Of a DNA stretch of 64,000 nucleotides, positions 3,001-61,214 are shown piece by piece (the stretch's first letter is position 1; every line of letters starts with the position of its first letter). Origin of the DNA: Somniosus microcephalus (Eukaryota); NCBI GenBank assembly GCA_052327205.1, contig CM126209.1:36766001-36830000 (forward strand), given 5' to 3'. A program made the position numbers and the translations under genes. The notes below the pieces were generated by a model. The model was not told the DNA's origin and did not search any database. It saw nothing but the letters and a program-made list of their open reading frames with translations.

Positions 3001-3133
3001 AATTCAACAATACCAGTGCTTTCCTGGCATCTGGCACTTCATTCACCTTGCAGTACACTTCTATGCATTCTATATATGTCGCCCAAACTTCGACTTCATT
3101 ATCGAACGCTGTGACACTGCCACTCTTCGGCAT
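1..3133 (-). pseudogene. gag-pol: Gag-Pol polyprotein in one frame with in-frame stops at 1487-1489 and 437-439
   Basis: Two CCHC knuckles (CYRCGRTTHNHKDC, CRQCGEVGHIARVC), protease LDTGS, RT ICGDFK...YLDD, RNase H (ACDTS, TDHQPL, NADGLSRLP). The integrase HHCC region continues in frame below 437. Confidence 0.92.
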
Positions 3134-3149
3134 CCCTGGGTGTGGTTAG

Positions 3150-8947: not shown

Positions 8948-9635
8948 GCTGATGGAATAGATGGCAGGTGAAGTAGAGATGACAGAAGTGATCGGTCAAT
9001 GCTGAGAGAGGTAATGAGGTCAGACTGGATGGAGACATGTGTAAAGACTTGCAGCAAGGTGAAATGCAGTGAGGAAGAGTTTGTGGCTGAGGGAAGGTAT
9101 CTCTGTAAGGTGGGAGCTTTTACTGTACATTTGAAGCTGTCAACTCAACAGCTGATTCAATGGCCACTGAACTCCCGCCTTAGCTCGACAGATGTGGTCC
9201 ACGACCAGCGTGGACCCTGTGGGCGAGCTGTCAAATGCAGAAGGTGAACTGAAATTCATTCTTAAGTGGCTCTAAACAAGCCAATAATTACCTGAATTGG
9301 GTCCCCCGCTGTGAACCCGCCGCTGCGTGCCGGGTCTGCTCAGCACTGACAGACCCAACATTGGGGAAAGGCGTGTGGCGGCAGGTTCACAGTGGGGTCA
9401 CGACCCGCTGGGGAAAAAAAACACTTTCACACCCGACCCACACCGATCGCGCCTGAAGACCCCCCATAAAATCCAGCCCGTTGTTTCCAGGTACCAGGTG
9501 TCCAATTTCCAAAAAAACAACACAAGAAGCCAAATTATTAGCTACTGAGATTCCAGGAGGCTACAATTCCTTGAGCCTCACCCCAGGTAGTGCGGCAAGT
9601 CGGGACTTCTGGTCGCTACTGTGCCCCAGTGTTAA

Positions 9636-11043: not shown

Positions 11044-14000
11044 TGTTGAGATACCGCGGCAAACGTGGGAGTCGAGACCAGAGCTATTGAAAACACAACT
11101 GCTTTATTCCAACCACATGACAAACAGGAACTAGAAAAGCCCGCGCATCCACTTAAATACTTCCCAGACAGGAAGTGCTCCCAGCAGCCTGTCCCTGCGG
11201 GAAACAAGTTGCTGGAGGAAAGGGCCCCCGGCTGGGGGCTTCTGCTTAGACTGTCTGTGCCGCCGTGAGCGGATTATGTCCAGTGGTGGCGTGTCGCCAC
11301 AGAGCTCCCCCCAGAATCCGCTTAGGAGGAGTGGACGAGTCGTGACGGTGGTCTAATGGTTCTGCCGCAGCGGCTCTGAGTGGTCGCCGGTCTGGTTGGT
11401 TGGGTCGAGCGGTTCGCCGCCGGCTGTGCTGGCTTGCCGGGGGGACGGCCTCTAGTTGGAGGCTGGGCCACGGGGACCTGTTCCCCTGGTTCTGTGTGTG
11501 CTGGTTTGAGCCGGTCGATGGAGACTGTCTCGACCCTGTCGCCGAGTCGCAGCTTGAAGACCTTGTCCCCGGTTTGTAGTACCTCGTACGGACCGTCGTA
11601 CGGGGGTCGCAGGGGCCCGCGGTGCGCGTCGTGTCGCACGAAGACGAAGCGCGCCTGCTGTAAATTTGGCGGGACGTGAGGTGCGAGTTCGCCGTGTCGG
11701 TTGACCGGAAGTGGGGCGAACTGCTGAGCGGAAGAGAAAGAGTCGAGCCGCTGCTGTTCGGCCGACCAAGGCTTGGTAGGCTCCGGAAGGAATTCGCCTG
11801 GGACTCGCAGCGGTTGTCCGTAGACTAACTCCGCTGCCGAGGACTGGAGGTCTTCCTTGACCGCGGTGCATAGGCCGAGTAGCACCCACGGTAGGCGGTC
11901 AGTCCAGGTACTGTCCTGCAGGCCGGCGCGGAGTGAGGCCTTGAGTGACCTGTGGAAGCGTTCACAAAGTCCGTTGGCCTGCGGGTGGTACGCCGTGGTG
12001 CGGTGGAGCGTCACCCCGAGGTTGCGTGCTGTGGCCGTCCAGGGTTCGGAGGTGAACTGGGCGCCTCTGTCGGAGGTTATGTCGGCCGGTACGCTGAACC
12101 TCGCAACCCAGGTGTTAACGAACGCCCTGGCGATGTCGGCTGTGGTGGTGGAGGTCAGCGGCACTGCCTCAGGCCAGCGTGTGTAGCGGTCGACCATCGT
12201 GAGGAGATAAGTTTGGCCTTGCGATGGCGGCAGGGGACCGACGATGTCGACGTGTACGTGGTCGAAGTGGCGGCTGGGTACCTCGAAGTCTCCCAGGGGT
12301 GCTTTGGTGTGCAGCTGTACCTTAGCCCGTTGGCAGGCGAGGCAGGAGGTGGCCCAAGTCCGAACATCTCTGCTGAGGCCGCGCCAGACGAAGCGCTTGG
12401 AGAGGAGTTTGACGGATGCGCGGGAACCCGGGTGAGAGAGCCCGTGGAGCGCGTCGAAGACGCGGCGGCGCCAGGTCTCAGGGACGACCGGCCTGGGTTG
12501 GCCGAGTGAGACGTCGTACGTGACTGCCGTGGCTTCGGGCCCGTGCGTGACCTTGGCTAGGCGTAGCCCTGGCAGGCTGGTAGCCGCCGAGAGGAGGTCT
12601 GGGTCCGTGAGCTGGGCCGCTGCTAGTTGCGCGTAGTCGACCGCGAGGTGATTCGCACAGACGGCGGGACGGGAAAGGCAGTCGGCGACCACGTTGTCTC
12701 TACCGGAGACGTGCTGAATGTCCGTAGTAAACTCGGAGGCGGCCGCGAGCTGGCGTTGCTGCCTAGCGGACCAGGGTTCGGTGTGCTTGGCCATCGCGTA
12801 TGTGAGTGGCTTGTGGTCCACATACGCGGTGAAGGGGCAGCCTTCCAGGAGGAACCTGAAATGGCAGACCGACAGGTGGAGTGCGAGAAGCTCGCAGTCG
12901 AAAGTGGAGTATTTGACCTCCGGGGGGCGCAGTTGGCGGCTGTAGAAGGCAAGTGGCTGCCACGCGCCATTGACCCACTGCTCGAACACGGCCCCGACCG
13001 CGTGGTCGGAGGCGTCGGTGGTGAGCGCGACCCGGGCATCGGCCCTCGGGTGCGCGAGCAGAGTGGCGTTGGCGAGCGCGTTTTTGGTGGTGTCGAAGGC
13101 GGCTGCCGTGTCAGTGGTCCAGGCTACGTCCATCTTGCCGGATTTTCCTCGGAGGGAGTCGTATAGGGGCTTCATGAGGGCTGCGGCTCTGGGGATGAAC
13201 CTGTTGTAGAAGTTCACCATCCCGAGGAACTCCTGGAGGCCCTTGATGGTTGTGGGGCAGGGGAATTGCTGGACGGCCTGCACCTTGTTGGGCAGGGGGA
13301 CGGCCCCAGCAGGGGTGATGTGGTGACCGAGAAAATCGATCTCGGTTAGGCCGAATTGGCACTTCGCCGGGCTGAGGATGAGCCCGTGTTGGGCTAGGCG
13401 CCCGAACAGGATGCGAAGGTGTTCGAGGTGTTCCTGTTTGGAGGAGCTGGCCACGAGAATGTCGTCTAGATAGACGAATAGGAAGTTCAGGTCCCGGAGG
13501 ACTGAGTCCATAAGGCGCTGGAAAGCCTGTGCTGCATTCTTGAGGCCGAAGGGCATCCTCAGGAACTCGAACAGGCCGAATGGGGTGATGACGGCCGTTT
13601 TGGGGATGTCCGCGGGGTGTACGGGGACTTGGTGGTAACCGCGCACCAGGTCGACTTTGGAAAAGACGGTTCGTCCGGCCAGTCGGGCCGAGAAGTCCTG
13701 GATGTGTGGCACCGGGTATCGATCGGGGGTGGTGGCGTCGTTGAGGCGGCGGTAGTCCCCGCAAGGGCGCCAGCCTCCGCCGGGCTTGGGGGCGATGTGG
13801 AGGGGCGAGGCCCAAGGGCTGCTGGAGTGGCGGATGATGCCGAGTTGTTCCATGTTGGTGAACTCGGCCCGCGCGATTTCCAGCTTGGCCGGGTTGAGTC
13901 TGCGGGCGTGGGCAGAAACTGGGGGGCCGGTGGTGGGGATATAGTGTTCCACACCGTGCTTGGCGGCTTTGGCCGAAAAGGTCGGGTTAGTGATGGCGGG

Positions 14001-15394
14001 AAACTCAGCTAGGAGTGCCGAGCAGTCGTCCGTGGCTCTGGCGAGGCAGTAGGTCGTCAGGCCGGCCGAACGGGCCGGGGTAAAGGCGCCGGGGATGGGG
14101 GCCATAGTGTTGATGTCGACGAGGCGGTGCCTCGGAATGTCGACAAGGAGGCCGTGGGCGCGTAGGAAGTCGGCGCCGATGAGTGGGCAGAGGACCTTGG
14201 CTGTGAGGAACTCCCAGCGGTAGCGGCGGCCCACGAGGTCGAGCGTGACCATGCGGGTGCCATATGTGCGGATTTCAGAGCCGTTGGCTGCAGTCAGTGT
14301 GATACCCCGTGTGCCGCGTTGGATTTCGAGGGCGGAGGCGGGGGTGATGCTGTGCTGGGTCCCTGTGTCGCACAGAAATCGGCGGTTGGTTCTGGCGTCA
14401 GTGACGTACAGTAGGGGCTCCTTCTGCCCCGCGGCCATCGCGGGGGCCGGTGCGGGGGGGGGTTTGAAGGTACACGGTGGCGTGCAGCGTTGAGCCCTAG
14501 CGCCAAAACGGGTGTGGTAGTAGCAGTGACCCGGAGTGGTAGGGCGGTCGGGCCTAGTGGCCCGGGAAGACCGCGTGGTCGTTGCCGTGAGGTCGGGCGC
14601 GACGTCGCGAGCGGCCTGTGCAGAGAGCAGCCGGTCGGCCTTTTCGGCTATATCATTCAGGTCCGTGGAGTCAGACTCCACAATGAGCGGGCGGATGCTG
14701 GCGGGGAGCTGCCAAATGAAAAGCGTGCGAAAAAGGGCGCCGGGATTTTTGTCGTCTGAGAGGGACAGCATGTGGGAAAGCAGGTCTGATGGTGAAGCGT
14801 CACCAAGGCCGGGGAGGTCCAGGAGTTGGCAGTGGCGCTGGTAAGAGGACGTTTGAAATGTTTTAAGTAGCGCAGCCTTCAGATGTTCGTACTTGCCCTC
14901 CGTTGGTGGATTCTGCAGTGCTGCCCAAACCTTGGGGACTGTAGCGTAGGTGAGCAAGGCGACGAGGTAATCGTACTTCGTGGCGTCGACTGTAATGCCT
15001 TTCAGCCGGAATCTGGACTCAGCTTGAACGAACCAGGCTTTGGCGAGGTTCTCCCAAAAGTCTGGTAATTTAACCGTGACTGCGTTTGTATCCGCCATGC
15101 TAGCTTAGGATTCGTCCTGAGCATCGGGGTCACCAGTGTTGAGATACCGCGGCAAACGTGGGAGTCGAGACCAGAGCTATTGAAAACACAACTGCTTTAT
15201 TCCAACCACATGACAAACAGGAACTAGAAAAGCCCGCGCATCCACTTAAATACTTCCCAGACAGGAAGTGCTCCCGGCAGCCTGTCCCTGCGGGAAACAA
15301 GTTGCTGGAGGAAAGGGCCCCCAGCTGGGGGCTTCTGCTTAGACTGTCTGTGCCGCCGTGAGCGGATTATGTCCAGTGGTGGCGTGTCGCCACA
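11044..15394 (-). mobile_element. Full-length Ty3/Gypsy LTR retrotransposon, CsRN1 clade
   Basis: 258-bp LTRs at 11044-11301 and 15137-15394 (two mismatches seen), 4-bp TSD AGCT, tRNA-Trp-type PBS TGGTGACCCCGA at ~15124-15135, PPT at ~11302-11312, and a CX2HX9CX3C gag knuckle. Confidence 0.97.
11322..15098 (-). CDS. gag-pol: Uninterrupted Gag-Pro-RT-RNaseH-IN polyprotein, 1258 aa
   Basis: [18 protein letters not shown], protease CDTG, RT YLDD, RNase H TDAS, integrase HHCC with D,D,E residues (VDIVG, SDRG, CERFHR), and a GPY motif. Confidence 0.96.
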
Positions 15395-20781: not shown

Positions 20782-23700
20782 CTAATGAACTTTACACATA
20801 AGTGGTTGCATGCTTCCCAACCATGTATAAAGGGAGGTAACATATCGAACCGTAGGGGCTATCATTACACTTGGCACTCCTAGTGTACTGTATGTCAATC
20901 TTTCAGGAACCTTCTTAACTCGCTGTGAGCTCCTTATTTCGGATACCCGGTCTTCAGTTCCTTCAACTACGTTGGAGGTGTTGGTTCCGTTGTTATCATG
21001 CCTTTCAGTCTCTTTTATCTCCTTCTCGGAAGCATCTGGTTCTTCCCAGACCATGTCCAAGTCTGAGCTAAATGGTTCAGACAATTCATCCAGATTCTGT
21101 CTTATGTGTCTTTCTGGGAGGTCGTACCATAGATCCCATTCTTCATCTTCCGACTCATCAGGTTCCTCATGATCCACACACTGTGTCATGGGTTTTCTGT
21201 CTTCTGGAACAAAGTTTTCCTGGTTTCTCGTTTTTTTCCTTCTTCTTCTCTGCAGGGTTCTCCTACTAGGTGTCGGCTCATTATCCGCTGGCGGATCCAG
21301 ACGCACTTGCTGTCCCAATGGCAGGATATGATTCCGGTGCAGTATTTTTATGGGTCCATTCCCACCTGCAGGTTTTAGCCGAAACACAGGTAGTTGTGGC
21401 ATTTGACTTTCAACAATGTAAGGCGTAGAAGCCCAGCGGTCTGCTAACTTATGTTTCCCTTGAAGTCCTAGGTTCCGTATGAGAACTCGGTCACCAGGCA
21501 TGAGTTGGGAAAAACGGATCTTCTGGTCATACCTCTGCTTGTTTCCTTTATTCTGTTTGGCAGAAACAGACTCAGCAAGTTCATAAGCAGCTTGCAATTC
21601 CTTTCTCATGTCAGATACATACTTGAGGTAAGTTCGCTGTGATGTGCCATCACTGGATACTCCGAAACACAAATCCACCGGCATCCTCGCTTCACGTCCA
21701 AACATGAGGTAGTACGGTGAAAAACCAGTAGCGTCATTTCGGGTACAATTATAAGAATGAACAAGATGTCCAATGTGCCGACTCCACTTGTTCTTTCGCT
21801 TTGAATCCAGCGTTCCAGGCATGTCTAACAAAGTACGGTTAAACCGCTCAGGTTGAGGATCTCCCTGAGGATGGTATGGAGTTGTTCTTGACTTCTCAAT
21901 CCTGAGCATGGACAACAACTCATGTATAAGTCTACTTTCAAAGTCTCTACCTTGATCACTGTGTATTCGCTTTGGCAGTCCATAGTGGATGAAGTATTTC
22001 TCCCACAACACTTTGGCAACGGTGGATGCTTTCTGATCCTTTGTGGGAAAAGCTTGGGCGTAGCGAGTATAATGATCTGTGATGACCAAGACATTTGCGG
22101 TATTGCTGGAATCAGGTTCGATGGACAGAAAATCCATACAGACAAGGTCTAGAGGTCCATCACTTTGCATGTGAAACAGAGGAGCAACTCTTTTAGGTAA
22201 AGTCTTTCTCTGGACACAACGTGCACAGGACTTGCAGAACTCCTCAACCGCAGACTTCATACGCGGCCAATAGAATCTGTCCTTGACCAACCCATAGGTC
22301 TTATCTACTCCCAGATGACCTGCGTCATCATGCACAGACTTCATCACTATTTCCCTGTACTTTTCAGGCAGGACCAACTGTGAATGACATGGTTTAGTGG
22401 GTGGGTGAGTGATTCTACACAACACTCCCTCTTTAATTTCCAAGTGGTCCCATTCTCTTAGGAGCAGACGACAGTCAGGATGTTTTGATTTGTCGATCTG
22501 TGTAATATCACCCAGACGGAGAGCTGAAAACACCTCATGAATACAGGGATCCTCCTGTTGTGCTTTGGATATTTCAGATGAACACAACATGGGTAAGTTT
22601 TGTACATCCAAACTGGAAAGGTTGCAAAATGCCTGGGGAACAGCATGCATTGACGCTCCCAAGTGGTCAATCTCTCGGGCATGAAATGAATTCTTTGGTC
22701 CAGGTACCACGGACATCTGACACATTACTTTCACATCTGCTGAAGCAACATCTTTCCACTCTGGTTTCTGGTAGTGTGGGCGACGAGACAGAGCATCTGC
22801 GTCAATGTTCTGGTTCCCAGGTCTGTACCTGAGACTAAAGTCGTAAGCAGATAGTGCAGCAAGCCAGCGGTGGCCGGTGGCATCAAGTTTTGCCGAAGTC
22901 AACACATAGGTTAATGGATTATTGTCTGTCCTCACTTCAAACTTCGCTCCATACAGATAATCCTGCAGCTTATCCACCACCCCCCACTTCAACGCCAAGA
23001 ATTCTAGCTTATGAGCTGGGTAGTTATGCTCTGATGGCGTAAGACTGCGACTGATGAACGCTACGGGTCTCAGCCCTGCTCCTTGGTCCTGATACAACAC
23101 ACCACCCAACCCTTCTTGACTGGCATCCATGTGTAGCACATATGGCAGCTGTGGGTTTGCAAAAGCCAACACGGGGGCTTGAGTAAGACTTTGCTTTAAG
23201 GTGTGGAAGGCCTCTTCGCATTTCTCATCCCATCTAACACCAAAAGGCTCAGAGGGTTTGAAGTAGTCCTTGTTCTCTTTACCTTTAGCCTTTTTCTTCC
23301 TCTCGGCTGGTGGGAGGTAACCAGCCAGCAGCTGATTCAGAGGATGGGCCACTTTGGAGTAATCCTGCACAAAGCGCCTGTAATATCCGCAGAACCCAAG
23401 AAATGACCGCAAGGCAGTCACTGTGTTCGGTTTGGGCCATGTGGTAACAGCTTCGATCTTGGATGGATCTGTGGCTACTCCATCCTATGATACAATATGC
23501 CCCACATAGGACACGGATGTTTGGCAAAACTGACACCTGTCCAATGATAGCTTGAGACCTTCATCCTCCAGGCGACCAAGCACTTTCAGCAACCGAGCTT
23601 CGTGTTCTTCAAGGGTTGCCCCAAACACAATGATATCGTCCAAGTACACCAATACTTCGGCAAGTTCATGTCCCCAACTGTTTGTTCCATTATTCTTTGA

Positions 23701-25097
23701 AAAGTTGCTGGAGCGCCTGAAACTCCCTGTGGCATCCTTTCAAATTGGTAGAACCCAACTGGACATATAAAGGCTGTCTTTTCTTTGTCCGATTCACTCA
23801 TCGGTATTTGGTAGTATCCACTTCTGAGATCCAACACACTGAACCACTTGCTTCCATTAAGACAAGCCAGTGCATCCTCAATTCTTGGAACGGTGTATTG
23901 GTCGGGAATAGTACGTCTGTTAAGCGTCCTAAAGTCCACACACATCCGAATCTTTCCGTTCTTTTTCCTCACCACCACTATAGGAGATGCATAAGGACTC
24001 CTGGACTTGGTAATGATCTCAGCTTCTTTTAACTGCGACAGGTGCTGTCTCACTGCTTTGATGTCAGCTGGTGCCAGCCGTTGAGACCTCTCCCAAAAGG
24101 GTTTATCCTCGGTAATTCTGATAGAATGGCGAGTACTCTTACTACAACCAACATCAAACTCATGAGTAGAGAAAACTCCTCTCCGCTCCATCATCTTCCT
24201 GACTAATCGGTCCTTCCATTCTTTAGGAACGAATGAATCTCCAAAGTTGAAGGAGGAGGGTGTCAGATCTCCGGTTGAGTTAACTTTGGACTCTTCCTTC
24301 ACATGTGACGACAGTACATTTACAGGAAACAGATGCGCAATCGGCATTCCTTTCCTCAATGTGATTCCTTTGCCTGACATATTCCTCACGGTCACTGTAA
24401 CTCTCCTTGACATCACAGCTGTCGGGGTCTGCAACTCTGGTCTCACCAGAAGCTCATTTGGAAACCGTGACTCTTCTGCAGGATCATCAGGTGACTCTAT
24501 CAGAATGGCTTCAGTACCTGGCGTTCCAGGGAATTTTGGTATCCCAGGGATTCTAGCCACTCCTCCAGGACGCAGGGTGATAGGTTTGGCTCGAACGTAC
24601 CACACAGTTCCTCTTTTGCTATCATCTACGTCGGAAGAAAGTTCAGGCAGTTTCTCAAAAGCCTTTTTGAAAACAGGGTGAATGTGTCTGGTGCTCAAGA
24701 AGTTTTCACCTCCCTGCTCTTTGCAGCTTGTCAGGAGTCGTCTCACTATGGGTGTATTACTGCCAACCAGTATGGAAGCCTCACCTTTCACCATGGGGTC
24801 AGGGCAAACCAACACAAGTGCATCAATGGTCTCAGTGGTCCCTACATCAGCTTCCAAGAACTCCAACCTCAGCGACAAATAGCCATCATATGGGTAATCA
24901 GCAGGACTAAGGCCCCAGATCTGCAGAAGACTGATTGGGGTTAACGGCAAATGCGTCAGGTATCGGTCATAGAAGGATCTGTACAGTATGGTAACCTGAG
25001 AACCCGTGTCGAGGATAGCTTTAGTATAAATGCCTTCAATCTGTATTGATACAGCAGAACTCGGCCCTACTAAACCTTCAGGTGTGATGTCTTTCAT
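20782..25097 (-). pseudogene. pol: Pol (PR-RT-RNaseH-IN) with a frameshift near 23655 and a stop near 23487
   Basis: LDTGSQ, MCVDFR, YLDD in the shifted frame, MDASQ, integrase HHCC, SDQG and ERFNR. Confidence 0.93.
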
Positions 25098-25162
25098 ATC
25101 CCCTCGTCTATTATTGCACTTAGCGGAACGCGTCTTAACTACAGGGACAGCAGGCCGTTCCG

Positions 25163-26566
25163 TTACTGTGCCCCTTTGTAGTTTCCCGACTTCTTGGTAA
25201 GTTTTATGAGACGGTCATTTACTTTTTTTAGATTTTCCTCACCTCTACATTCTCGCTTGAAATGTCCATCCTTTCCACAGTTATAACAAAAGACTCCAGG
25301 TCTATCTCCTTCATGGGGATATCCTTTAGAGGAATCATTCATTTTGCTGTTAGACTTCGCAGGGTGTTCAACCTTTTTCACCCGTGCGTCATCCCTTTCT
25401 GTGTTGGGCTTAGACCGAAAATATGCCATCTCGGCTCTCATGACATTTATTTCCTTCTTCAGCTGTTCCATCTCAGGGTTGACATCACCCTTAGGAGTAG
25501 AAACTGTAACAGGAGTCACAAGCTTGGACATCACAGCACTCTTTGCTACATTCCGGGCCTGAAGCATATCCTCCTCCTCTCTGACTTCCCTTAGCAGCTC
25601 AGTGAAGGTAGGTGGATCTCGCAACTTATGGGTCATGCGTATGCAAAGAGCAGTCACGTCTTCGAGCAATGCACTTCGCACAACCTGTTCAATGCGGAAC
25701 CGATTCATTTCAGGCAACTCAATCCCTCTTTTCCGTAACATACAATGCAGCAGTTTGTCTATTCACAGCAGATAACTGGACAGCTTCTCTCCCTCACACT
25801 GGAATGTGCTTCTGAATTTGACCATCAAATCTGAAATGGTTTCAGTAGTTCCAAAGGCAGTTTCTAGAGCCTGCATGTAGTCAAAGGAAGTAGCAGAGGT
25901 GTTCTGCGCCTTTAAGAATCTTACAATGTCAGCAGCAGGACCCTTAAGGCTTTCTACTATTCTCTGCCTCTTCACATCGTCACTGCACTGCCATTCCTCT
26001 AGCAGAGGCAGGGTCTGCTCAGCCCAGGCGTCGTACTCCTCTTCCCCACTGGGAGTTGGTCTCACTCCTGAGAACATACGGAGCTTACGGTATCCCTGAG
26101 CCTTGAAGGGCAGATTGGTGCATTTATCCACCAGAGAACTAATGGCACTGACCAACTGAGTGTTCATATCCAGGGCCGAAGGACCTATCAGACCTTTGAC
26201 ATCAGCAACAGTCTTTCCTTCTTGTCCCAAGAATGACAACAACTTGGTCTGAAACCCTTCTTCTTCCTTAGTAGTAATAGGGACAAACTGAACTGGCCAG
26301 GGACCAGCCTCTTCAGAAAGCCCAACTGCCTCAGGTAAACCATGACCTCTCAGGTTCTCTGATGTCTGGATCAACACAAATTGCTTCTTGGTAGCTGTAT
26401 CCAAGCAGCGCTCAACTATCCTAACCTTTCCAAAGACTTTGACACAATTCAGAGCCCTTAGCAAGACATCATCAGGGTCATCGTTAGCAACACCATTCAG
26501 CACAATAGCATGGGTAGTAGCTATCTGCTTCCGTTTGCACCAAGCTTCAACCTCAATAACATCCAT
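25163..26566 (-). pseudogene. gag: PNMA-like Gag with one in-frame stop at 25763-25765
   Basis: YRKLRMFSG...GEEEYDAW...EEWQCSD..KRQRIVESLKGPA and a C-terminal knuckle CYNCGKDGHFKREC. The two ORFs are in the same frame. Confidence 0.92.
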
Positions 26567-28749
26567 CTTTTATGCTCAAACAGCCCAGTAGAAACCACAA
26601 ACCTATCTCTTAGCAATGAGCATTCAATACTGTTAGTTTACTGACATAAGTAGACCACAATCCCGGACGAGCCCCCAAAATGTAACCCCTTCACGGTTCT
26701 CTAGATATATGTGAGATGTGGTCTCTGTTGTAGACAGTATTCTATAGTCCAGTAAGGAGATCACTACTACAATGGCTTAATTCTAATTATCTTACTTTAT
26801 AGTTTTAATGTCAGACAGTATAAGAAGATTACAGGTCAATGAACTAAATTAGACATTTGCATACATTAGAATGAATCTAGACATAATAAGCATACATTCT
26901 CCATTTACATGGATTCAAAGGAGAATCTGTCCCTGTGTCCAAATTCGAGTGCACTCTTTCGTTGGCGCGCTTAAGTTGGAGCTCATGGTATGTATAATGT
27001 CTGCAAGACTTACGACTCCGAACCCCTTCGTTGAATTCTCTTCACGATCACTGAATCCCACTTTGAGTTCTGGATGCAGAGCTACTAATACGAGGGGCGG
27101 CGGCCGAGTTTGGAAACCCGGGACGGGATGCGGCAGCCATTTGCCTCCTGAGCCCTCTTTTCAGAGCTCCTGCCCTCTTTTCTTCCAGTCGCTCCTTTTT
27201 CCCGCTCGAAAACCCCGACTCCACCCCTTCCTTCTGGGGTTTCTGCCTGGAGACTGCGCAGCCTCACTGTCTGCAACAGTTGATACTGGTGCAGAATTAT
27301 GGAAAGTCTGCTCTTAGTCACATTGTGTCCTTAAAAGTTCTTGCCGTACCTTCACATGGGCAACTTTAACCCAGGGATTTATAACAATGATAATACAGTG
27401 TCTAAGTTAAAGATTGATAACCATACTTAGCGTACATAACATTTCCAGTGGGTATTACACTATTTTAAACAATTAATAACATTTTTGAAAAAAATAATTT
27501 TTTAATAAATCGGGTCTAAAAATAAACTTACCTTACTGTAAAGTCCTTAAAAACAATGAAGCTGTGGAAAAAATGTAATAATTTTAAATAATAGACCACT
27601 TACCTTCAAGAATGCAGTCCTTACGCCTCCTTTTTATATGTGTAAAAAGTTCAGGCCCTTGCACACGGGCAAACCTGTCAAAAAGAAGGAAGTTCAACAC
27701 GTGCGCGCAGAGTCCTGCGCGCACGCGTTGGACCTCTAAAACCCTTGGAGGAAATGCCGGTTTCCCGCGCATGCGCTGTGCATGCTGAAATCCGGCACTT
27801 CCAACGGGCCCACGCGTGAGTACACCGTCCGTACTCACGCGTTGGGACCGGAATTACTGGCCCAATATGTTGCTAGTGAATCTCCAGTGGTGTTGCTTAC
27901 AGTAAATTAGAGGGTATGTTCTCCCACTTGTCTCTGGTGTCCTTGCGTTGCTGCTTCTTTCTCTGTCTCTCTCCTATTCTCCTTTACTCTCTCTATTTCT
28001 CTTCCTTTGTGATTATTTCTGTGTCTTTGTCTGATTTTTTTTCTTTCCATTCGGTGGGAAGTGGTGGATGGCATGGTCTGTGGGAAAGGGAGCCATGATG
28101 CGACCGAGACTATTGCACTGGTGGGTGTGGTGTGATTGTACTGGGAGGGTCAAAGTTTGGTGGGTTCTGTTTCAGCCTCACCCCTTTCCCCACCTGTGCA
28201 TTACCACCATCTTTACACCCGCGATTTGACTGGCCTATGGACCCTCTGTATCTGACCACTCTATGCCCACTCTGCCTTACCTCCATAGTCCACCCAATGT
28301 GCTTGATGCTCCTATGATCTCAATGGTCAATGAGCAACCCCCCCCCCACCCCCATCCCACCCTCCCCTCACTCCTTCAGTGGGCTGACCAGCCCATACTG
28401 TCACAGGAACTGCCACAGGCCTGGTCTGTGATCGTGATCAGTTACCAACAGTGCAGGGAAATACATTATAAGTTATAGAATCTAGAATGATACAACACAG
28501 AAGGAGGTCATTCGGCTGATCAAGTCTGTGCCGGTTCTTTGAAATAAATGCAAACAATTTGGATTGAAATTCAAAAGCACATCCCAATCCCCATGCAAGT
28601 ATAAGCTCATATGCAAATTTAAAACAACCCTGTATTTCTGATAACAAATGATGATCCAGAAAGCAAGTGATTTTTTGGGACTTTTGTAAGATTACTTAGA
28701 TAATATTTTAGTAGAACATTAAACCATTTGAGCAAATTAAACAGACATA

Positions 28750-32784: not shown

Positions 32785-34928
32785 CTAGAACTGACTTGCA
32801 ATAATCCGCCGATGGACGGCCCTTGCACTTTGTGTCTCCCTCCCATCTTGGTGCTCCTCCTCCTCCTCCTCCTCCTCCTCCTCTTCTGGTGGTCCTCCAA
32901 TGTCTGCTGGCAGTGGCTGAGTCCTGAGGATAGCCAGGTTGTGCAGCATGCAGCACACTACAACGAAATGGGAGACTCGCTCAGGCGAGTACTGAAGGGC
33001 TCCCCCGGAATGGTCCAGACAGCGGAACCGTTGCTTGAGCACACTGATTGTTAGTATGCAGGTACAGCAAGTGATCAAGAAGGCCAATGGAATGTTGGCT
33101 TTTATTGCTAGGGGAATAGAATATAAAAATAAGGAGGTATTGTTGCAGTTGTACAAGGTATTGGTGAGACCGCACCTGGAATACTGCATACAGTTTTGGT
33201 GTCCATACTTAAGAAAAGACATACTTGCTCTCGAGTCAGTACAAAGAAGGTTCACTCGGTTAATCCCGGGGTTGAGGGGATGGACATATGAGGAGAGGTT
33301 GAGTAGATTGGGACTCTACTCATTGGAGTTCAGAAGAATAAGAGGCGATCTTATTGAAACATATAAGATTGTGAAGGGGCTTGATTGGGTGGATGTGGTG
33401 AGGATGTTCCCAATGATGGGTGAAACTAGAACTAGGGGGCATAATCTTAGAATAAGGGGCTGCTCTTTCAAAACTGAGATGAGGAGAAACTTCTTCACTC
33501 AGGGGGTAGTAGGTCTGTGGAATTTGCTGCCCCAGAAAGCTGTGGAAGCTACATCATTAAATAAATTTAAAACAGGAATAGACAGTTTCTTAGAAGTAAA
33601 GGGAATTAGGGGTTATGGGGAGCGGGCAGGAAATTGGACATGAGTCTAGGTTTGGATCGGTCATGGCCCTGTGGGTAACAGAGCGGGCCCAGGGGCCGTG
33701 TAGCCTGGTTCTGCTCCTACTTCTTGTGTTCTAATTATGTGTTAGATTTCAGGAGATGGTTCTATTCCTGTTCCTGGCTGGGGTGGAGATCACCTTTTAC
33801 AGAAGGTAAGTACTGTAGAAAATATAGGGACAGTGATCTCCTGGACGAGTTTCGATCGCCTAGATGGGTCGGAGAGGAATTTCCCAGATTTTTTTTCTCC
33901 CAAATTGGCCATTGGGTTTTTAATCTGGTTTTTCGCCTCTCCCAGGAGATCACATGGGTTCGGGAGGGATGTAGAGTGATAGTAGATTTGAGGTTAGGAT
34001 CAGATCAGCCATGATCTTATTGAATGGTGGAGCAGGCTTGAGGGGCCGATTGGCCTACTCCTGCTCCTACTTCTTATGTTCTTATGTTCCTGGTCGCTTG
34101 ATGGCTGTCATTGTATCGTTCTTCAGCAGGGGTGCTGGGCGCACGGAGCGGGGTCATCAGCCAGGTGCACAAAGGATAGCCCTTGTCCCCGACAAGCCAG
34201 CCTCCTGGGTGAGCCGGGGCTTCGAAAATGTCTGCCACAGAAGTCTGGCGCAGGATGAAGGCATCGTGGCTGCTGCCTGGAAAGCGGGCATTGACAGCTA
34301 GCATGAGCTGCCTGTGGTCACACACCAACTGGACGTTGAGCGAATGGTATCCCTTCCAGTTGCGGTAATCCTCAGCATTCTGTAGAGGTGCCCGCAAAGC
34401 CACATGTGTGCAGTCAATGGTGCCCTGGACCATGGGGAAGCCCGCTATTCTTGCAAATCCCATTGCACGCTCTTGCTGCTTGTCCAGGGTCATGGGGAAG
34501 GAGATGTACTGACGTCTCCTTCTGAAGAGGGCATTCGTCACCTGGCGGATGCAGCAATGTACCACGAACTGGGAGATATTGGCAATGTCCCCAATAGCGG
34601 ATTGGAAGGAGCCGGTGGCATAGAAGTTGAGAGCCACTGTCACCTTCACTGCCACCAACAGAGACGTCCTGCTCCTCAGCTGTGGCTGCAGATCTCTCTG
34701 AAGCAGGTGGCAGATCTCAGTGACCACCTCCCTTCTGAATCGCAGCCTCCGAACACACTGCTCCTCAGACATGTTGAGATATGAGAACTGCTGGCGGTAG
34801 ATCCTGGGTGGGTAAGGCCTCCTGTGCTGACGCCTGTTGGCCCTTCTCCACCTGGCCATGACTGGCACTCTCTCTCGGCGTCTCTGAGCCCCTTGAATAC
34901 AATGCAGAAACCCAATGTTTCCACCCAT
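32785..34928 (-). pseudogene. Harbinger DDE transposase interrupted by CR1
   Basis: [32 protein letters not shown] and GDKGYP. Breaks at HQATRN and resumes TISVLKQRFRCLD below ~33051. Confidence 0.93.
33050..34088 (+). mobile_element. CR1 LINE 3' fragment with a composite, double 3' end
   Basis: ORF2 C-terminus to 33643, first tail at ~33730, second tail (TTCTTATG)n at ~34070-34088. Confidence 0.92.
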
Positions 34929-35452
34929 TGCAACCCCCAGTATATGTGGCGACTCAAGGCTATGGCACTGAAAGTTAAATCTAAGTGCAAAGCTCTGGCC
35001 TGAAGCCAGAAGTACCTGTGCGAGCGCTGAGTCAAAGCAGAAAGCTCTCTCCCTTTGTCTCTCTCCAAATCTCTCTCTCTCACACAGAAGGAGTGGAACA
35101 AAATGGCTGCCACAAAGAATGCAGGAAGAGTCCCCTTTAAATAGCGCCCCCCACACCCCACAGCGACTGGGAACCGTTCCACTCAACCAGTCACTAGGGG
35201 CGCCAGGCGCACAGAAGGGGGGCACCACTGAAGTTCCGGTTCGGGGCGCACCAAGGACGTTGCACCATCAAATGATGTCAGGATCTGCGCGCGCAGCTGA
35301 GCGGGCGCTGCGGTTTTGCGCCGCCGCTAAATCTTGACTGAAGTTCGCGAGAGGCGCAGATCGCGCCGCACCCGGGCGCTAGCCGCTTCGCGCCCCACTT
35401 CTCCCCCTCCTAAGGCGCTAGCGGCTGGCGCTAACAATTGAATTTCTAGGCC

Positions 35453-54612: not shown

Positions 54613-55105
54613 ATATCTCAGAGAATGCAGTCCCACCCTCACCCTCAAGATGCACCCGAACCACACACACACAGGAGGTGGTGGGAAACATCTTTCATCC
54701 AATTATATCAGTAAAAGGTGCCTTTCCCTACTAGCTAATAACTGAATGGCTGGTAAGTTTTGAATTGGTAATCCAGACCAGGAAAAGGATGGCCTCTGAA
54801 TAAGATCATCAATAGTTGGTCAAATAAAGCTTAATCCCTGGTTGGTGCTGTGTTAGCTTGGGCACCTGTAAAGTTCCACATATTAGTCTGCCGAAGTTAC
54901 AGCAGAGCAGCGGGGAACTCTTACGGAAATTCACCATATATATATAAAAAATAAAGATCACTTTTTTACTGTTTTCCCAACATAATGAACAGAGTTGTTG
55001 AATTTGACAGCTTAACCACCAACAAAAATCACAGAAATACCATTTAATAAAAATGGAATGATTTATTGAGTCACTGTAAATCAGTGGCACTGATGTTATC
55101 CATCT

Positions 55106-58100
55106 TGTTGTGGGATTTCTCTCTGCCCCAAAGCAGTACGAGATGAGCGTCTACTGGGTCCAAGCAATCTTCATTCAAGCACGTGTAGGGAGAGGCCCTC
55201 TCAGTCTGAGCTGAGATGGGAGTCTAATTTTTACATTCGAGCAGTTGGCTTATATACAATCTTACATCTTATTTCCTTCACATTTTCGGGACTTGGCCAA
55301 TTAATTGTCCAAGTCACGTACACTTAATCACATCGCCACTAAACACATCTTGTTTATCTCATTTGCCCTGTTTCGACGTCTGCCATTGTTCTATCTAATT
55401 TACGTACGCTTAACCTCTTCTTCGCAAAGCACATCTTGGAAGCCCATTGTACAATGTATGGCCTCCTTGATTATTTTACTCCCCCAATCATCGTGTAATA
55501 TGCTTTTTCCAACTATCTTTGTTCTGCCAGACTTCTCCTTTATAACATCAGCCAGCTAGTCAGTTAAGCCGCCAATTTAACTTTTAACCCCTTCAGTCCC
55601 CCCTTTTGGCCCTTGGTGATAGCCCAAGATGGCCAACTAACTTCACCTGCTCGTACTCCTCGCCCCATCACTGCTGGCCAGGCAGGTGGTTGGATTTGCA
55701 CGGGTGTGGCTACTTAAACTACCTCTAACATTCCCTGCTTCTCTCCCAATCTATACTGTGTTTTAACAACAGTTTTAGCAATGGTTCGGTTACGGCGTTG
55801 TTTACATCGAGTACAATACTCAAACATAAGTATGATGACAATTAGCAACTGCACCACCACAAATACATGAGATGCAATTCTGATCCAGGGGTGAATGTCC
55901 ACCCTAATACCCCAGTCACAAAGTGTCTGCCACCATGAGGCATCTTCCATCTTGTCCTCCATATCCTTCCCCAGTTGTTTGACCTCCTGCTCAATTCAGT
56001 GATACTGCTTAATTATCGCCCCGGCCTCTTTCCTCAGTTCCAGCAGGTGTTCTGGTAGTTTCGGGATGTCCTTCCCCTCAGGGAGTACATATTCGTGCAT
56101 GCTGTCCTTTAGGTCCTCAGTTGGACTCACCCGTTCCTCGCGGGGCGACCGTAGGTAGGTTATGGTTGCATGTCCGATCGTTGTTGGGGCCCGGGGGTGG
56201 AAGCAGAAACTTGAGCTGGTCACTGGGCACTGGATGTTACCATACTGGTATTGAGATTCACTGGTGGTCACACAGTATTCTCCTTTTCCCCGGTGTGCTG
56301 CTCGCGTTGGCTCATGGTGGGCGCTGGAAATTTCAAGGGTACAGTTTAGAATGGTGTTGAAGTTGCACATGGCTCCTGGCCCCATCCCCACAGGATGTGG
56401 GCAGACTACGTTACTCCCCCTTTCTCTGCATCCCTCTAGCGAGATCCCCATCAAGAAGGAACCTTTCTGGGTTGCATAACTGGGTGTGTGGTGGTACCTG
56501 AGCCAATTGCCATCTCTTATGATCCTGACATTTTCTACCTCGTAGTGGGGCTTGGATTCCTATTCCTGAAGACTGGGTACAGCTAATACCATTCCTATCA
56601 GCCTGAGGTGAGTGGTAGCACAATGTTTAGTTGTCGGGTAGACCCTTATAAGTCCTTGTAGGGTGCACGAAGAGCAATTGCCGCTCTCTGGAGCCCAGTC
56701 TTGCAGTGCACTATCCCTAATCCAATCCGGCACTTCTCCATTGTGGAGCTGTGCTAGATTATGTCGCACCTCCCCTACTAGCCATGCACCGTAGGCCACG
56801 CACATTCGCTCCCTAGAGGCCTGATTGGTTATGTTATGCAGGGTGGCGGTGACGTGGTTAAATGTATGGGCATGGTTTTCCAAAACTTGCACGGACTCTA
56901 ATAGGGTTTTAGTCACGTCTTCTCCAGTCTGTCCCTGTTGTCCCTCCATCTTATTTGCCTTTAACATGAGGTCCCTTAGTTTGGATGTCAGATGATTCAC
57001 CTTGCTATTGATTTCTGCTATATCCAGGGAATTAACTGTGGCTGTCCCTGCACTGTAAGCAGTGGCTATATCATTTACCAGGTTCCTCTTGCGGCGAGAT
57101 AGGCTTGACCGTACGCGTCCCCCAGAGGCCTGGAGAGCATCAGTAACTGTCATGTCGAGGAGCCGATGGTAAAACGACCTTGTACGCCACTCGCACCATT
57201 TGTGTAACCCCATCTGGCTAATATTGAGGACAACCGAAACTATCTCATGGTGTACATTCTCAAATAAGCGCTCATCAGAATCCTGGATCACAAGCCCCAC
57301 TTTGGGTCCCGAGCTAGGCTGCGGACACCTCAAGGGTTTCTCGGTAGTCAAAGTGGTGGGCTTCAGGGCTCCTGTTACTGGGGTGGTCGGTGTGGTTGTG
57401 GTTGTGGGAGTATCCCGGGGGTTCGGCTACCAACACCAATCATCAGAGTTGGTGCACTTGGAGGTTGGGCATAGTTCCCACCCTCCTTCTTCCTGCTGGG
57501 GTACTCCGGACATCTGAGTGAAATCCCTCCCACATCTTATTTGCATAGTTCCTCCCTGTACGTATGTTAATGTATCATCACTCTTCTTCCCGAAGCATAC
57601 CGTGCTCATGTTTGTCCATTTAACAGCCATCCCCGTGTTACCCCTATCCCCTATATCGGCTAGCTTGTTGTCAAATGTGCTTACGCCCATTAACCCGGAG
57701 CTACAATTTAAATACACTGTTTTATCAATCGTGACAGTTAATGCCCCACGTTCCCGATCGCAACTGATGTCGCTCAAGTTCTTGTAATACAGGCCTCGTT
57801 GCTCCCTTCGGTTGACCGATGTATCTCCTTCTGTGGTCGCCGTATCCTGGCATATCAGTAAGGTCATCCATATGACAGAGATGAGTGTGTACTGGCTCCA
57901 AGCGATCTTTATTCAAGCACGTGCTGGGAGAGGTCCTCTCAGTCTGAGCTGAGATGGGAGTCTAATTTTTACATTCGAGCAGTTGGCTTATATACAATCT
58001 TACATCATGTTTCCTTCACATCTTTGGGACTTGGCCAATTAATTGTCCAAGTCACATACACTTAATCACATCTCCACTAAACACATCTTGTTTATCTCAT

Positions 58101-58333
58101 TTGCCCTGTTTCCACATCTGCCATTGTTCTATCCAATTTACGTACGCTTAACCTCATCTTCGCAAATCACATCTTGGCGGCCCATTGTTCAATGTATGGC
58201 CTCCTTGATTCTTTTACTCCCCCAATCATCAGGTAATATGCTTTTTCCAGCTGTCTTTGTTCTGCCAGACTTCTCCTTTACTACATCGGCTAGCTAGTCA
58301 GTTAAGCCGTTAATCTAACTTTTAACCCCTTCA
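55106..58333 (-). mobile_element. Endogenous retrovirus-like element, env only (gag/pol/PBS deleted), lokiretrovirus-like
   Basis: Complete 3' LTR at 55106-55595 (TG...CA) and 5' LTR at 57878-58333 lacking its last ~34 bp. 4-bp TSD ATCT at 55102-55105 and 58334-58337. PPT at ~55596-55607. TATA and AATAAA motifs in the LTR. Confidence 0.92.
55714..57876 (-). pseudogene. env: Class I fusion envelope glycoprotein, paramyxovirus-F-like, ~720 codons with 3 in-frame stops
   Basis: Four ORFs in the same frame, separated by stops at 57427, 56560 and 55996. Signal-peptide remnant VIWMTLLIC, Thr/Pro linker, furin site RRKR at 57085-57096, fusion peptide and heptad repeat, Cys-rich domain, second heptad, TM helix at ~55822-55878, and a basic tail. 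Confidence 0.88.
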
Positions 58334-61214
58334 ATCTATCAATGGCATAAACACCCTCCGGTTCACCGTGGGCAATGCTACAGGAGATTACATAGGATTA
58401 CATAGGATATACGGCACAGAAACAGGCCATTCGGCCCAATCAATCCATGCTAGCGTTTATGCTCCACTCAAGCCTCCTCCAGTCTTTCCTCATCTAAATC
58501 TATCAGCATAACCCTCTATTCCCTTCTCCCTCATATCCTTGTCTAGCCTCTCCTTAAATTCATCTATACTATTAGTTTCAACCACTCCCTGTGGTAGCGA
58601 GTTCCATATTCTCACCACTCTTTGGGTAAAGAAGTTTCTTCTGAATTTCCTATTGATTTCTTGGTGACTATCTTATATTGATGGCCTCTAGTTATGCTCT
58701 TCTCCACAAGTGGAAACAGTCTCTCTGTATCCACTCTATCAAAATCTTTCATAATTTTAAAGACCATTAGGTCACCCCTCAGCCTTCTTTTTTCAAGAGA
58801 ACAGACCCAGGCTGTTCACCCTTTCCTGACATATATATACCCCCGCATTTTTGGTATCATCCTTGTAAATCTTCTCTGCACCCTCTGCACTGCCTCTATA
58901 TCCTTTTTATAATATGGTGACAAGAACTGTGCGCAGTATTCTAAGTGTGGTCTAACCAAGATTTGATACAGGTTTAGCATAACTTCCCTACTTTTCAATT
59001 CTATTCCTCTAGAAATAAACCCTAGTGCTTGGTTTGCTTTTTTATGGCCTTGTTAAATTGTGTCGCAACATTTAGTGATTTGTGTATTTATATTCCGAGA
59101 TCCCTTTCTTCCTCTACCCCACTTAGACTTGCACCCTCCAAGTAATATGTGACTTCCCTATTCTTTCTAACAAAACGTAATAACTCACATTTATCTGTGT
59201 GGAACTTCATTTGCCAATTATATGCCCATTCTGCAAGTTTATTAATGTCCTCCTGTAATTTGTTGCAGTCCTCCTCAGTATTGACTATCCCCCCCAATTT
59301 GGTGTCATCAGCAAATTTAGAAATTGTGTTTTTGATTCCAAAGTCTAAATCGTTAATGTAAATTGTGAACAATTGGTCCCAGCACTGATCCTTGTGGAAC
59401 ACCACTTCCCACCTTCTGCCACTGTGAATAGCTACCCTTTACCCCCACGCTCTGCTTTCTGTCTTGAAGCCAGCCAGCAATCCATTCTGTTACTTGTCCC
59501 CTGACTCCGCATTCTCTGACCTTGTTCCATCAGTCTATTATGGGGTGCCTTATTGAAGGCCTTTTGAAAATCTAGATAAATTACATCTACTGCATTATCA
59601 TTGTCTACTCTCTATTACCTCTTCAAAAAATTCAATGAGGTTGGTCAAGCAAGACTTTCCCTTTTGAAATCCATGCTGACTATTCCTTATTACATTTTTG
59701 GTTTCTAGATGTTCTTCTATTTTCTCCTTTAGTAGGGATTCCATTATTTTTCCTACCACTGATGTTAAGCTGACTGGTCTATAATTCCCTGGACATGTTC
59801 TAGCCCCCTTCTTGAATATAAGTATTACGTTAGCTATCCGCCAGTCTTCTGGCAGTACACCTTTTTCTAATGAATTATTAAATATGTGTAGTAACGTCTC
59901 TGCTATCTCTTTCCTAGATTCTTTTAAAATACATGGATGCAATCCATCCGGACCAAGGGTTTTATGCTCTTTGAGTTTGATTAGTTTATTTAATTTATCC
60001 ACTCTTTTTATTTTAAATGCACTTATCTTATTACTAATCTCATCATCCAATGTCATGTCCACTGGTTCTATCTCCCTGGTAAATACTGAAGCAAAATAAT
60101 GATTTAATATTTCTGCCATCTCTCTATCGTTACCTGTGGTATTGTCCTGTCTATCCTTTAATGGTCCTATTCGCATCCCAACCTTCCTCTTTTTATTGAT
60201 GTGCCTATAAAATATTTTACTATTTTGTTTTATGTTCCTTATTTATTTCATTTCATAGTTCCTCTTTGCCTTCCTAATTGTTTTTTTTGACTTCTCTCCT
60301 AATCTCTTCGTATTCTCCCTTATCGTGCACTCCCTTCCTGTCCATGTACTTAATGTATGCCTCTCTCCTTACCCTCAATTGTTCCCTTGTGACTTTATTC
60401 ATCCATGGAGTCTCATTAGTGTTTAGTTTGTTCTTTCCTTTTAACAGAATATATTTTTCCTGCACTCTGTTGAACACCGTTTTAAATGTTTCCCATTGCT
60501 GCTCCACATCGTTGTTTGCCAATATTGTTGCCCATTTTATCTTCCCAAGTTCTATTCTCAGCCCCTCAAAATCAGCTTTTCTCCAATCTATTAACCTGGT
60601 TTTCATCATACTTATGTCCTTCTCAATTATCATCTTAAAGTGTATTAAATTATGGTCACTATTGCCTCGCTGTTCCCTTACTTTTACTTCTCTTATCTGC
60701 TCTGGCTCATTCCCCATTACTAGATCCAATAGTGAATCCTCACTTGTTGGGCTTTTTACATATTGGGTTAGAAAGGAGTCCTGTACACATTGTAGGAACT
60801 CCATTCCCTTATCCCCTTTACCTACCTCTTCTGTCCAATTAATATCAGGGTGGTTGAAATCCCCCATGATTATTATTCTATGTTTTTTACTCCTTTCCCC
60901 ATGTCTGCATATTTCTTCCTCCACCTCCCTTCCACTATTAGGTAGTCTGTAGACTACGCCTATTAGTGTGATTGATCCTTTATTAACAAACTGCCATTAT
61001 GTTATCCCTAATAAGTACAGCTACTCCACCTCCCATTTTTCCCTCTCTATCATTTCAAAATATGTTATACCCTGCAATGTTTAATTCCCAGTCCTGATTT
61101 TTCTATAGCCATGTCTCAGTAATCCCTACTATGTCTGGTTCCTCGCAACGCATGATTGCCTCCAGCTCCCCTGTTTTATTACAGACACTGTGTGCATTGC
61201 TGTACAGACAGTTT

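Follow-up and report, generated by a model that had tools for sequence, protein, structure and literature searches.

A 64,000-nucleotide stretch of the Somniosus microcephalus genome (assembly GCA_052327205.1, contig CM126209.1, positions 36,766,001 to 36,830,000), called here the window and used as the frame for all coordinates, carries on its minus strand at 55106-58333 an insertion consisting of an envelope gene between two long terminal repeats (LTR-env-LTR; hereafter the element). Our best explanation, to which we assign a probability of roughly 0.85 as a whole, is that the element is a defective provirus from a shark endogenous retrovirus (ERV) family present in multiple copies, that this family is a canonical retrovirus of an unclassified fish lineage outside the lokiretroviruses, that the infecting virus would have carried an F-type fusogen, and that F-type and gamma-type env genes were exchanged at least twice within its shark Pol clade. 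The novelty lies in canonical shark retroviruses carrying an F-type Env and exchanging it with gamma-type Env. A literature search, with Repbase/Dfam, subscription journals and bioRxiv supplements outside its coverage, returned no description of an F-type Env in shark ERVs, snakehead retrovirus (SnRV) or epsilonretroviruses. The sequence-only reading of this stretch had proposed a link between retroviral and paramyxoviral fusogens; the F-type Env is borne out by the evidence that follows, while the link itself was already in print for lokiretroviruses and foamy viruses (PMC7947760, PMC11468914).

A predicted F-type envelope in the joined env reading

Four stop-to-stop open reading frames (ORFs) in one minus-strand frame (57427-57912, 56560-57426, 55996-56559 and 55714-55995) join into a single reading of 732 codons with three internal stops, the env portion of which starts at 57873. 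The proposal that these four ORFs make one glycoprotein held: the motifs quoted for it (KVGLV, HEIVSVVLNIS, C-x7-Y, DAL and SRRKR) are all found in the joined reading, the furin site RRKR lies at Env residues 273-276, the ectodomain put at about 400 residues measures 399 from there to the transmembrane (TM) helix, and the joined reading of the window has no CX6CC motif. The span originally given, 55714-57303, lies within env and omits the first ORF as well as the Pro/Thr linker.

Searches by sequence reached the F proteins faintly. The single window Env had no significant match to F in Pfam, and the gamma-type Env features TLV_coat, CX6CC and the immunosuppressive domain (ISD) were absent from it; phmmer against the PDB gave no significant F match (human parainfluenza virus 3, hPIV3, F at E~0.3), and its xylanase matches to the N-terminal part (E 0.002) were judged chance. 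A word-seeded protein search with the window Env returned 0 of 6,749 candidates, and a first scan of viral contigs gave no match. A profile built from 18 genome copies collected 83 proteins at E<=0.001, and the ten full-length homologues that were looked up comprised two from sharks (Mustelus, Chiloscyllium), five from frogs and three without a species name, none of them viral by name. With a shark-only Env profile the best F match in the PDB had E 0.06, and Pfam Fusion_gly and Baculo_F gave nothing above the cut-off, the best being one of the 18 genome members at E 0.049 (PF00523); homologue P0201, one of 26 scanned, showed a weak Fusion_gly match (E 2e-4).

The fold was more informative. A model of the 509-residue Env core, made from a 60-row alignment, had a predicted local distance difference test (pLDDT) score of 76, low over the fusion peptide and heptad repeat A (HRA). 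The top Foldseek rows against the PDB were the F proteins of hPIV3, Newcastle disease virus (NDV), respiratory syncytial virus (RSV), Langya virus and parainfluenza virus 5 (PIV5), with E from 3e-11 to 6e-10, so that the best rows are paramyxo/pneumovirus F and not gamma Env. A wide VIA search over 48,161 chains placed nine F chains highest (Z 9.3-11.5), then foamy Env (8.7), well ahead of the first unrelated chain at 5.3; about 300 residues aligned to prefusion F chains at a root mean square deviation of 5-8 Å, spanning both F2 and F1. The first ESM Atlas match was a Fusion_gly cluster (0.94), weak evidence because recognition was below threshold. Since the genome scan scored at least 149 env-like matches and the fold match stands far above the unrelated rows, the Env is not a chance reading. 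By its modeled fold the window Env is a predicted F-type class I fusogen of the general paramyxo/pneumo/foamy kind, non-gamma and non-beta, as the sequence-only reading had supposed.

The closer parallel drawn there with morbillivirus F2 found no support. Measles F is tied with the F proteins of PIV5, NDV, hPIV3 and RSV (6-14% identity), and insect lispivirus glycoproteins and the Env of walleye epidermal hyperplasia virus 1 (WEHV-1) outscore every paramyxovirus in BFVD, where the order was lispivirus-type glycoproteins, WEHV-1 Env (2e-12), baculovirus F, a fish filovirus glycoprotein and paramyxovirus F, with the Env of walleye dermal sarcoma virus (WDSV; 6e-8) and feline foamy Env (3e-5) lower. 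The lispivirus, WEHV-1, baculovirus, paramyxovirus and foamy matches together mark the Env as F-type in general and not as specifically morbillivirus-like. The second-best structural match was a 928-amino-acid viral protein (BFVD A0A384ZVF2, E 3e-14).

Direct capture of a paramyxovirus F gene by an LTR element, which would make the insertion an endogenous paramyxoviral element, accords with the fact that the best solved-structure matches are paramyxovirus F. We regard it as very improbable. The F-type proteins of paramyxo- and pneumoviruses, lispiviruses, baculoviruses and errantiviruses share the class I fold and F2/F1 layout with the window Env at 6-15% identity, against 30-40% identity to the Envs of other shark ERVs; all ten full-length homologues lack a viral name; and the gene occupies the usual place of env, with a splice-acceptor-like signal.

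The N-terminal domain of the window Env was modeled at pLDDT 38 and had no ESM Atlas match; relatives carry an Ig V-set-like domain at their N-terminus (P0189, E 1e-5). P0142 and P0149 join a piece of an Env of this family to cadherin or F-box domains; these are probably gene-model artefacts, possibly exonised env.

Relationship to the envelopes of lokiretroviruses and other retroviruses

The loki Env reference was P0200, which has motifs in common with the published Loki Env consensus proteins and was found by the family profile at E 4e-4. Profiles built without P0200 gave it 40 bits (shark only), 68 bits (frog/other) and 66 bits, while SnRV Env scored 0.6, 29 and 24 bits on the same three profiles and shuffle maxima lay at 5-10. 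SnRV Env (L100:7601-9202) matched a widened profile at E 3e-13; with the shark-only profile there was no match, and the hhalign probability was 4%. SnRV Env had been considered as a closer relative than loki Env, and the profile scores run opposite. Identity of the window-family Env to loki Env is below 20%. Judged by these profile scores, the Env is a member of an unnamed shark/frog Env family with detectable homology to loki Env and weaker homology to SnRV Env.

Like the window-family Env, loki Env has a signal, an RXKR site, coiled coils and a TM segment and is related to Mononegavirales F, and lokiretroviruses share the LTR-gag-pol-env order and dual RNase H (Wang & Han, PMC7947760; PMC9040795). 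Unlike loki Env, the window-family Env has an extra N-terminal domain of ~180 amino acids plus a linker, and its fusion-peptide position is much less hydrophobic. SnRV is, like the window's family, a canonical fish retrovirus, and the two Envs are collinear from the CP..GP motif through the conserved Cys/Gly block; the SnRV Env frame, by contrast, has 1,134 codons, and SnRV reverse transcriptase (RT) is not resolved as sister to the family. Among epsilonretroviruses, the BFVD models of WEHV-1 and WDSV Env match the window Env model at E 1.9e-12 and 5.7e-8, but these Envs are 1,159-1,317 amino acids long, with 13% identity to the window Env and TM-scores of 0.21-0.31. Epsilonretrovirus Envs are described as distinct and non-gamma, SnRV and walleye Envs being treated as unclassified in reviews (PMC9967133), and modeling of such Envs has been reported to fail (10.1101/2021.11.05.467493). 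The SnRV and walleye epsilonretrovirus Envs (BFVD Q9WHI8, A4GTG3) appear with an F-type core. Foamy Env has an F-type core in common with the window-family Env (8rm0, Z 8.7; 8rm1, Z 7.0; PMC11468914), but its receptor-binding domain is inserted between the two subunits whereas the extra domain of the window-family Env is N-terminal; zinc knuckles set the window-family Gag apart from that of foamy viruses, and one close relative in Pol lies nearer murine leukemia virus (MLV) than foamy virus.

Placement of the family by Pol

Loki RTs in the PMC7947760 supplement carry PFGY.NSPAEF, the motif by which our loki RT reference, P0245, was picked; over 300 of the 318 pages of that supplement NSPAEF occurs 57 times and QGFHNSP 0 times. 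The RT motif of the window's family is PQGFHNSP. L100 is SnRV: its RT agrees with the SnRV row in the same supplement, and its length equals the published 10,688 nt (PMC12193657). In an RT tree of 65 rows, 30 of 95 having been omitted as redundant or long-branched, loki falls outside the canonical retroviruses (support 100/99), and the window's family falls within a 13-row shark clade (100/99), itself within a fish clade (98/93). Grouping the family with loki RT was rejected by the approximately unbiased test (p-AU 1.1e-4). A close Pol relative scored highest with MLV RT (272 bits), followed by foamy (185) and Ty3 (114). Among named sequences, the closest Pol and Env relatives come from Heterodontus, Mustelus and Chiloscyllium, which supports the probable chondrichthyan host proposed by the sequence-only reading. 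'NYNRIN-like' proteins of birds and turtles that contain an RT (P0240, P0254, P0259, P0035) form a deep clade of their own in RT trees.

The element had been called lokiretrovirus-like, and that label holds for one part only, since the Env is homologous to loki Env (40-68 bits) while the element itself, by RT motif, tree and topology test, is not loki. Identity as a lokiretrovirus, which would be the first from a chondrichthyan, would agree with its F-type Env of detectable similarity to P0200, its RXKR site and its dual RNase H (tether plus RNase H, seen in L082); the last is not diagnostic of loki because all retroviruses share it. Set against this are the RT motif (PQGFHNSP and not PFGY.NSPAEF), the distance of the family from loki RT, the Pol relative nearer MLV RT and the low identity to loki Env, and we consider the lokiretrovirus identity highly improbable. 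In the lokiretrovirus Table S2, all six chondrichthyan genomes stand without an asterisk, which presumably marks loki-positive genomes.

Envelope exchange and a second Pol lineage

Within the shark Pol clade, 7 loci carry a gamma-type env and 10 an F-type env. The env of L080 matches TLV_coat at E 7e-16 and has CX6CC plus ISD; the remaining gamma-type loci were typed by tblastn. Both sets, which were defined by env type after the RT tree had been inspected, fail to form clades in a 932-column Pol tree (p-AU 5.6e-5 and 0.011), and the tree calls for a minimum of two changes. A second Pol lineage in the same genome (L057, L058, L064-L066), with an RT ~45% identical and a coiled-coil Gag, has the same Env family. 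The Env tree gathers the F-type Envs from the window's Pol clade into a single group (99/98), which lies among second-lineage Envs (95/96), and this nesting suggests transfer between the two lineages. These trees point to env genes of the two types having been exchanged repeatedly on the Pol backbone of this clade.

The gamma-type partner has precedents, as gamma-type-Env ERVs of cartilaginous fish and Env/Pol recombination in anamniote ERVs have been reported (10.1101/2021.11.23.469661; 10.64898/2026.05.06.723177), and the L080-type loci of the window's Pol clade carry such an Env. Those surveys used gamma/beta or syncytin queries and required features of the ISD/CX6CC type, so that an F-type Env would have escaped them. 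PMC13524379 states that a vertebrate ERV analysis is to be reported elsewhere.

Several observations weigh against our best explanation. The fusion-peptide position of the Env is Gly/Ala/Thr-rich and weakly hydrophobic (maximum KD19 hydropathy 0.62), with low model confidence there; the HRA region of the model has pLDDT <50; and the TM-scores are moderate (0.3-0.46 overall, 0.3-0.45 for the Foldseek rows of paramyxo- and pneumovirus F). The Env is nearer loki Env (40-68 bits) than SnRV Env (0.6-29 bits), and the Env tree places loki Env outside with weak support (81/67) and a long-branch warning. References in the RT tree are one loki RT, one SnRV and one ERV-L, without a foamy or named epsilonretrovirus RT; grouping the Pol clade with class I (gamma/epsilon) was not rejected (p 0.27), the clade being separate in the RT tree, and neither was grouping it with SnRV (p 0.35), the test for the SnRV-related clade Huo (PMC6001957), with which it forms a polytomy there. 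For the exchange, the gamma label of L092 is a 38-residue remnant, the Pol-tree rows are tiled fragments, and L067 and L080 are placed differently by the RT and whole-Pol trees, so recombination inside pol may add to the incongruence.

The second lineage had itself been considered a lokiretrovirus, on even RT scores and NYNRIN-like neighbors, and this was dropped after the genuine loki motif and SnRV had been recognized. Frog and coelacanth 'NYNRIN-like' proteins are the neighbors of the second-lineage Pol, which does not group with loki. Several open F-type env frames of ~804 codons with an N-terminal Ig-like D-x-G-x-Y-x-C motif occur in L064-L066, L024/L025 and L027, and some second-lineage copies are without RT (gag-PR-env only). 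L080/L081 is a multi-copy ERV with an open gag, a 1,187-codon pol after the gag stop and a gamma-type env, its Pol close to the window's family. At L026, L038, L061 and L086, one ERV has inserted into or next to an ERV of another family; in L026 a gamma-env element lies immediately before an F-env gene.

Gag-pol, LTRs and priming in the family copies

Recovery of further copies with the element's own LTR, which the sequence-only reading had advised along with RT and Env trees, succeeded: same-LTR copies carry gag-pol and this env (L011/L012, L013, L030-L049 and L082), with a gag bearing two CCHC zinc knuckles, then protease, RT, tether, RNase H and integrase, and then the same env at its usual site behind integrase. 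Sister copies show LTR, primer-binding site (PBS), gag, pro, pol, env, polypurine tract (PPT) and LTR with a target duplication, and full copies have a splice-acceptor-like signal ahead of the env start; the window copy is without PBS, gag and pol. No family pol or env frame of at least 480 codons was found in the 20 loci fetched together, and the longest family pol frame observed (574 codons) is in L082. Five further family LTR pairs diverge by 0.019-0.075. Contigs from four sequencing runs (24 listed) cover the env in 4/4, which places the family in three other organisms; one run contig crosses from unique flank into the LTR by 27 letters, short of the 31-letter threshold for calling the insertion orthologous.

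The PBS of the family complements the 3' end of host tRNA-Ser(AGA). Among ten insertions with both flanks, target duplications were exact 4 bp in four, 4 bp with one mismatch in two, 5 bp in two and none in two. A GPY motif is present in L028, and the L080 Pol gave no Pfam match to dUTPase. Priming by tRNA-Ser is linked to ERV4. That assignment was set aside, as the ERV4 criteria (no zinc fingers, no GPY/F, 5-bp target duplication; PMC4299795) mismatch the zinc knuckles, GPY motif and mostly 4-bp duplications. Table 1 of the same source gives for class I ERVs (ERV1) a 4-bp target duplication, one to two zinc fingers, a GPY/F motif and no dUTPase; the family agrees in all of these, which are not exclusive to ERV1, and SnRV/Ovex1-related ERVs may share the zinc-finger and GPY/F features (PMC4299795).

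Anatomy of the locus

The element proved to be the LTR insertion it had been taken for, having two LTRs, a PPT and a 4-bp target duplication whose identical bases stand beside each LTR end, upstream at 58334-58337 and downstream at 55102-55105. Read along the minus strand, the 5' LTR (57874-58333, 460 bp) begins with TG, has a TATA box and polyA signal and lacks the final ~30 bp of U5. Its truncated U5 abuts the env start at a deletion junction (57873-57874), where PBS, gag, pro and pol are gone. The env pseudogene (55714-57873) has its first Met at 57867 and in-frame stops at 57427-57429, 56560-56562 and 55996-55998. It comprises a short signal-like stretch and a Cys-containing, probably receptor-binding N-terminal domain (57430-57864); the Pro/Thr-rich linker (57328-57426); an F2-like segment (57085-57327) of two strands, a conserved Cys and a helix, ending in the furin site (57085-57096); an F1-like ectodomain (55888-57084) with the fusion-peptide position, long HRA helices, Cys-rich beta domains and heptad repeat B (HRB); and the TM helix (55816-55887), followed by a basic tail of ~33 amino acids. 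The PPT (55596-55607) and a complete 3' LTR (55106-55595, 490 bp, TG...CA) close the element.

The LTR-env junction has one match in the 6.45-Gb genome, against 312 matches for the family LTR end at <=2 mismatches, a count in which copies with two LTRs are counted twice. The loss of U5 end, PBS, gag and pol is a deletion private to this copy. Because the PBS is gone while the 3' LTR keeps its U5, the deletion most likely came after integration, and with the three stops it leaves the copy inert. The locus is dead, a fossil in which nothing points to a function. We rejected a spliced env retrocopy: an AG precedes the junction on the env side, yet the LTR side has no GT donor. An env-only non-autonomous element, or an env gene co-opted by the host in the manner of a syncytin, would look like this in its LTR-env-LTR layout with a promoter-bearing LTR immediately ahead of env, but no second copy of the junction occurs in the genome, both PBS and U5 end have been lost, and the first of the three stops precedes the fusion core; such a role seems to us extremely improbable.

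Shark substitution rates are slower than mammalian ones, so the insertion is probably older than the ~18 My that a mammalian rate returns. That figure comes from a Kimura two-parameter distance of 0.079 between the 5' and 3' LTRs (456 sites) and the rate of 2.2e-9 used in PMC7947760.

Other elements in the window and genome

A Gypsy-type element at 11322-15104 (minus strand) has an open 1,260-codon gag-pol frame and lies in a GC-rich block. Two further Gypsy-type gag-pol remnants lie at 437-3145 and 20782-26569 (both minus strand), the former of the same kind as the Gypsy-type element nested in family copy L011/L012. Frames at 34074-35267 and 8323-9144 (both minus strand) are, by their motifs, what we take to be Harbinger/PIF-transposase-like. 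Elsewhere in the genome, L097-L099 (G000 C4, C43) are large tandem tRNA gene arrays, and the tRNA-Ser 3' pattern has 260 exact matches.

Mode of entry and origin of the envelope

The virus behind the family would have been equipped with a two-zinc-knuckle Gag, a protease-RT-tether-RNase H-integrase Pol, tRNA-Ser priming and mostly 4-bp target duplications. Its env, judged from homology with paramyxovirus F, would have been expressed from a spliced mRNA. The product would have been cleaved by furin, leaving a disulfide-linked F2-like subunit that bore the N-terminal attachment domain, and HRA and HRB would have refolded to a six-helix bundle as in paramyxovirus F. Layout and fold support entry into cells by a class I fusogen of the paramyxo/pneumo/foamy type, the function itself being presumed. 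After integration, the private deletion and the three stops would have produced the inert copy in the window, while elsewhere in the Pol clade env was probably swapped between the two types, the F-type being shared with the distant second lineage.

Where this Env came from is a separate question. It may have entered a single canonical fish lineage laterally, its donor being a lokiretrovirus or an RNA virus, and then have been distributed by recombination; this course, somewhat less likely than not, is compatible with our best explanation and differs on the origin of the Env alone. Env swaps within this genome and the higher score of loki Env over SnRV Env on the family profile speak for it. 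Against it, F-type Envs are found in several canonical lineages, namely two shark Pol clades, their frog relatives, SnRV, WEHV-1, WDSV and foamy viruses (PMC11468914), and their deep divergence makes inheritance simpler. We tentatively propose, at a little under even odds, that the F-type fusogen is the ancestral Env of all retroviruses, persisting in foamy viruses, lokiretroviruses and many canonical fish, shark and frog retroviruses (the window's family, the second shark lineage, SnRV and WDSV/WEHV) with variable N-terminal attachment domains, some of them Ig-like, and that gamma-type Env would be a later replacement, repeated inside one shark Pol clade.

PMC9040795 favors independent acquisition of env by lokiretroviruses and canonical retroviruses, partly as their Envs 'did not share detectable similarities'; a family with canonical RT and a loki-homologous Env contradicts that premise. 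A canonical, non-loki lineage with an F-type Env suggests that Envs of this type arose earlier and occur in more retroviruses than has been reported. Two unrelated fusion machines would have been swapped on one Pol backbone, and the origin of retroviral env becomes directly testable by an Env-versus-RT tree from public sequences.

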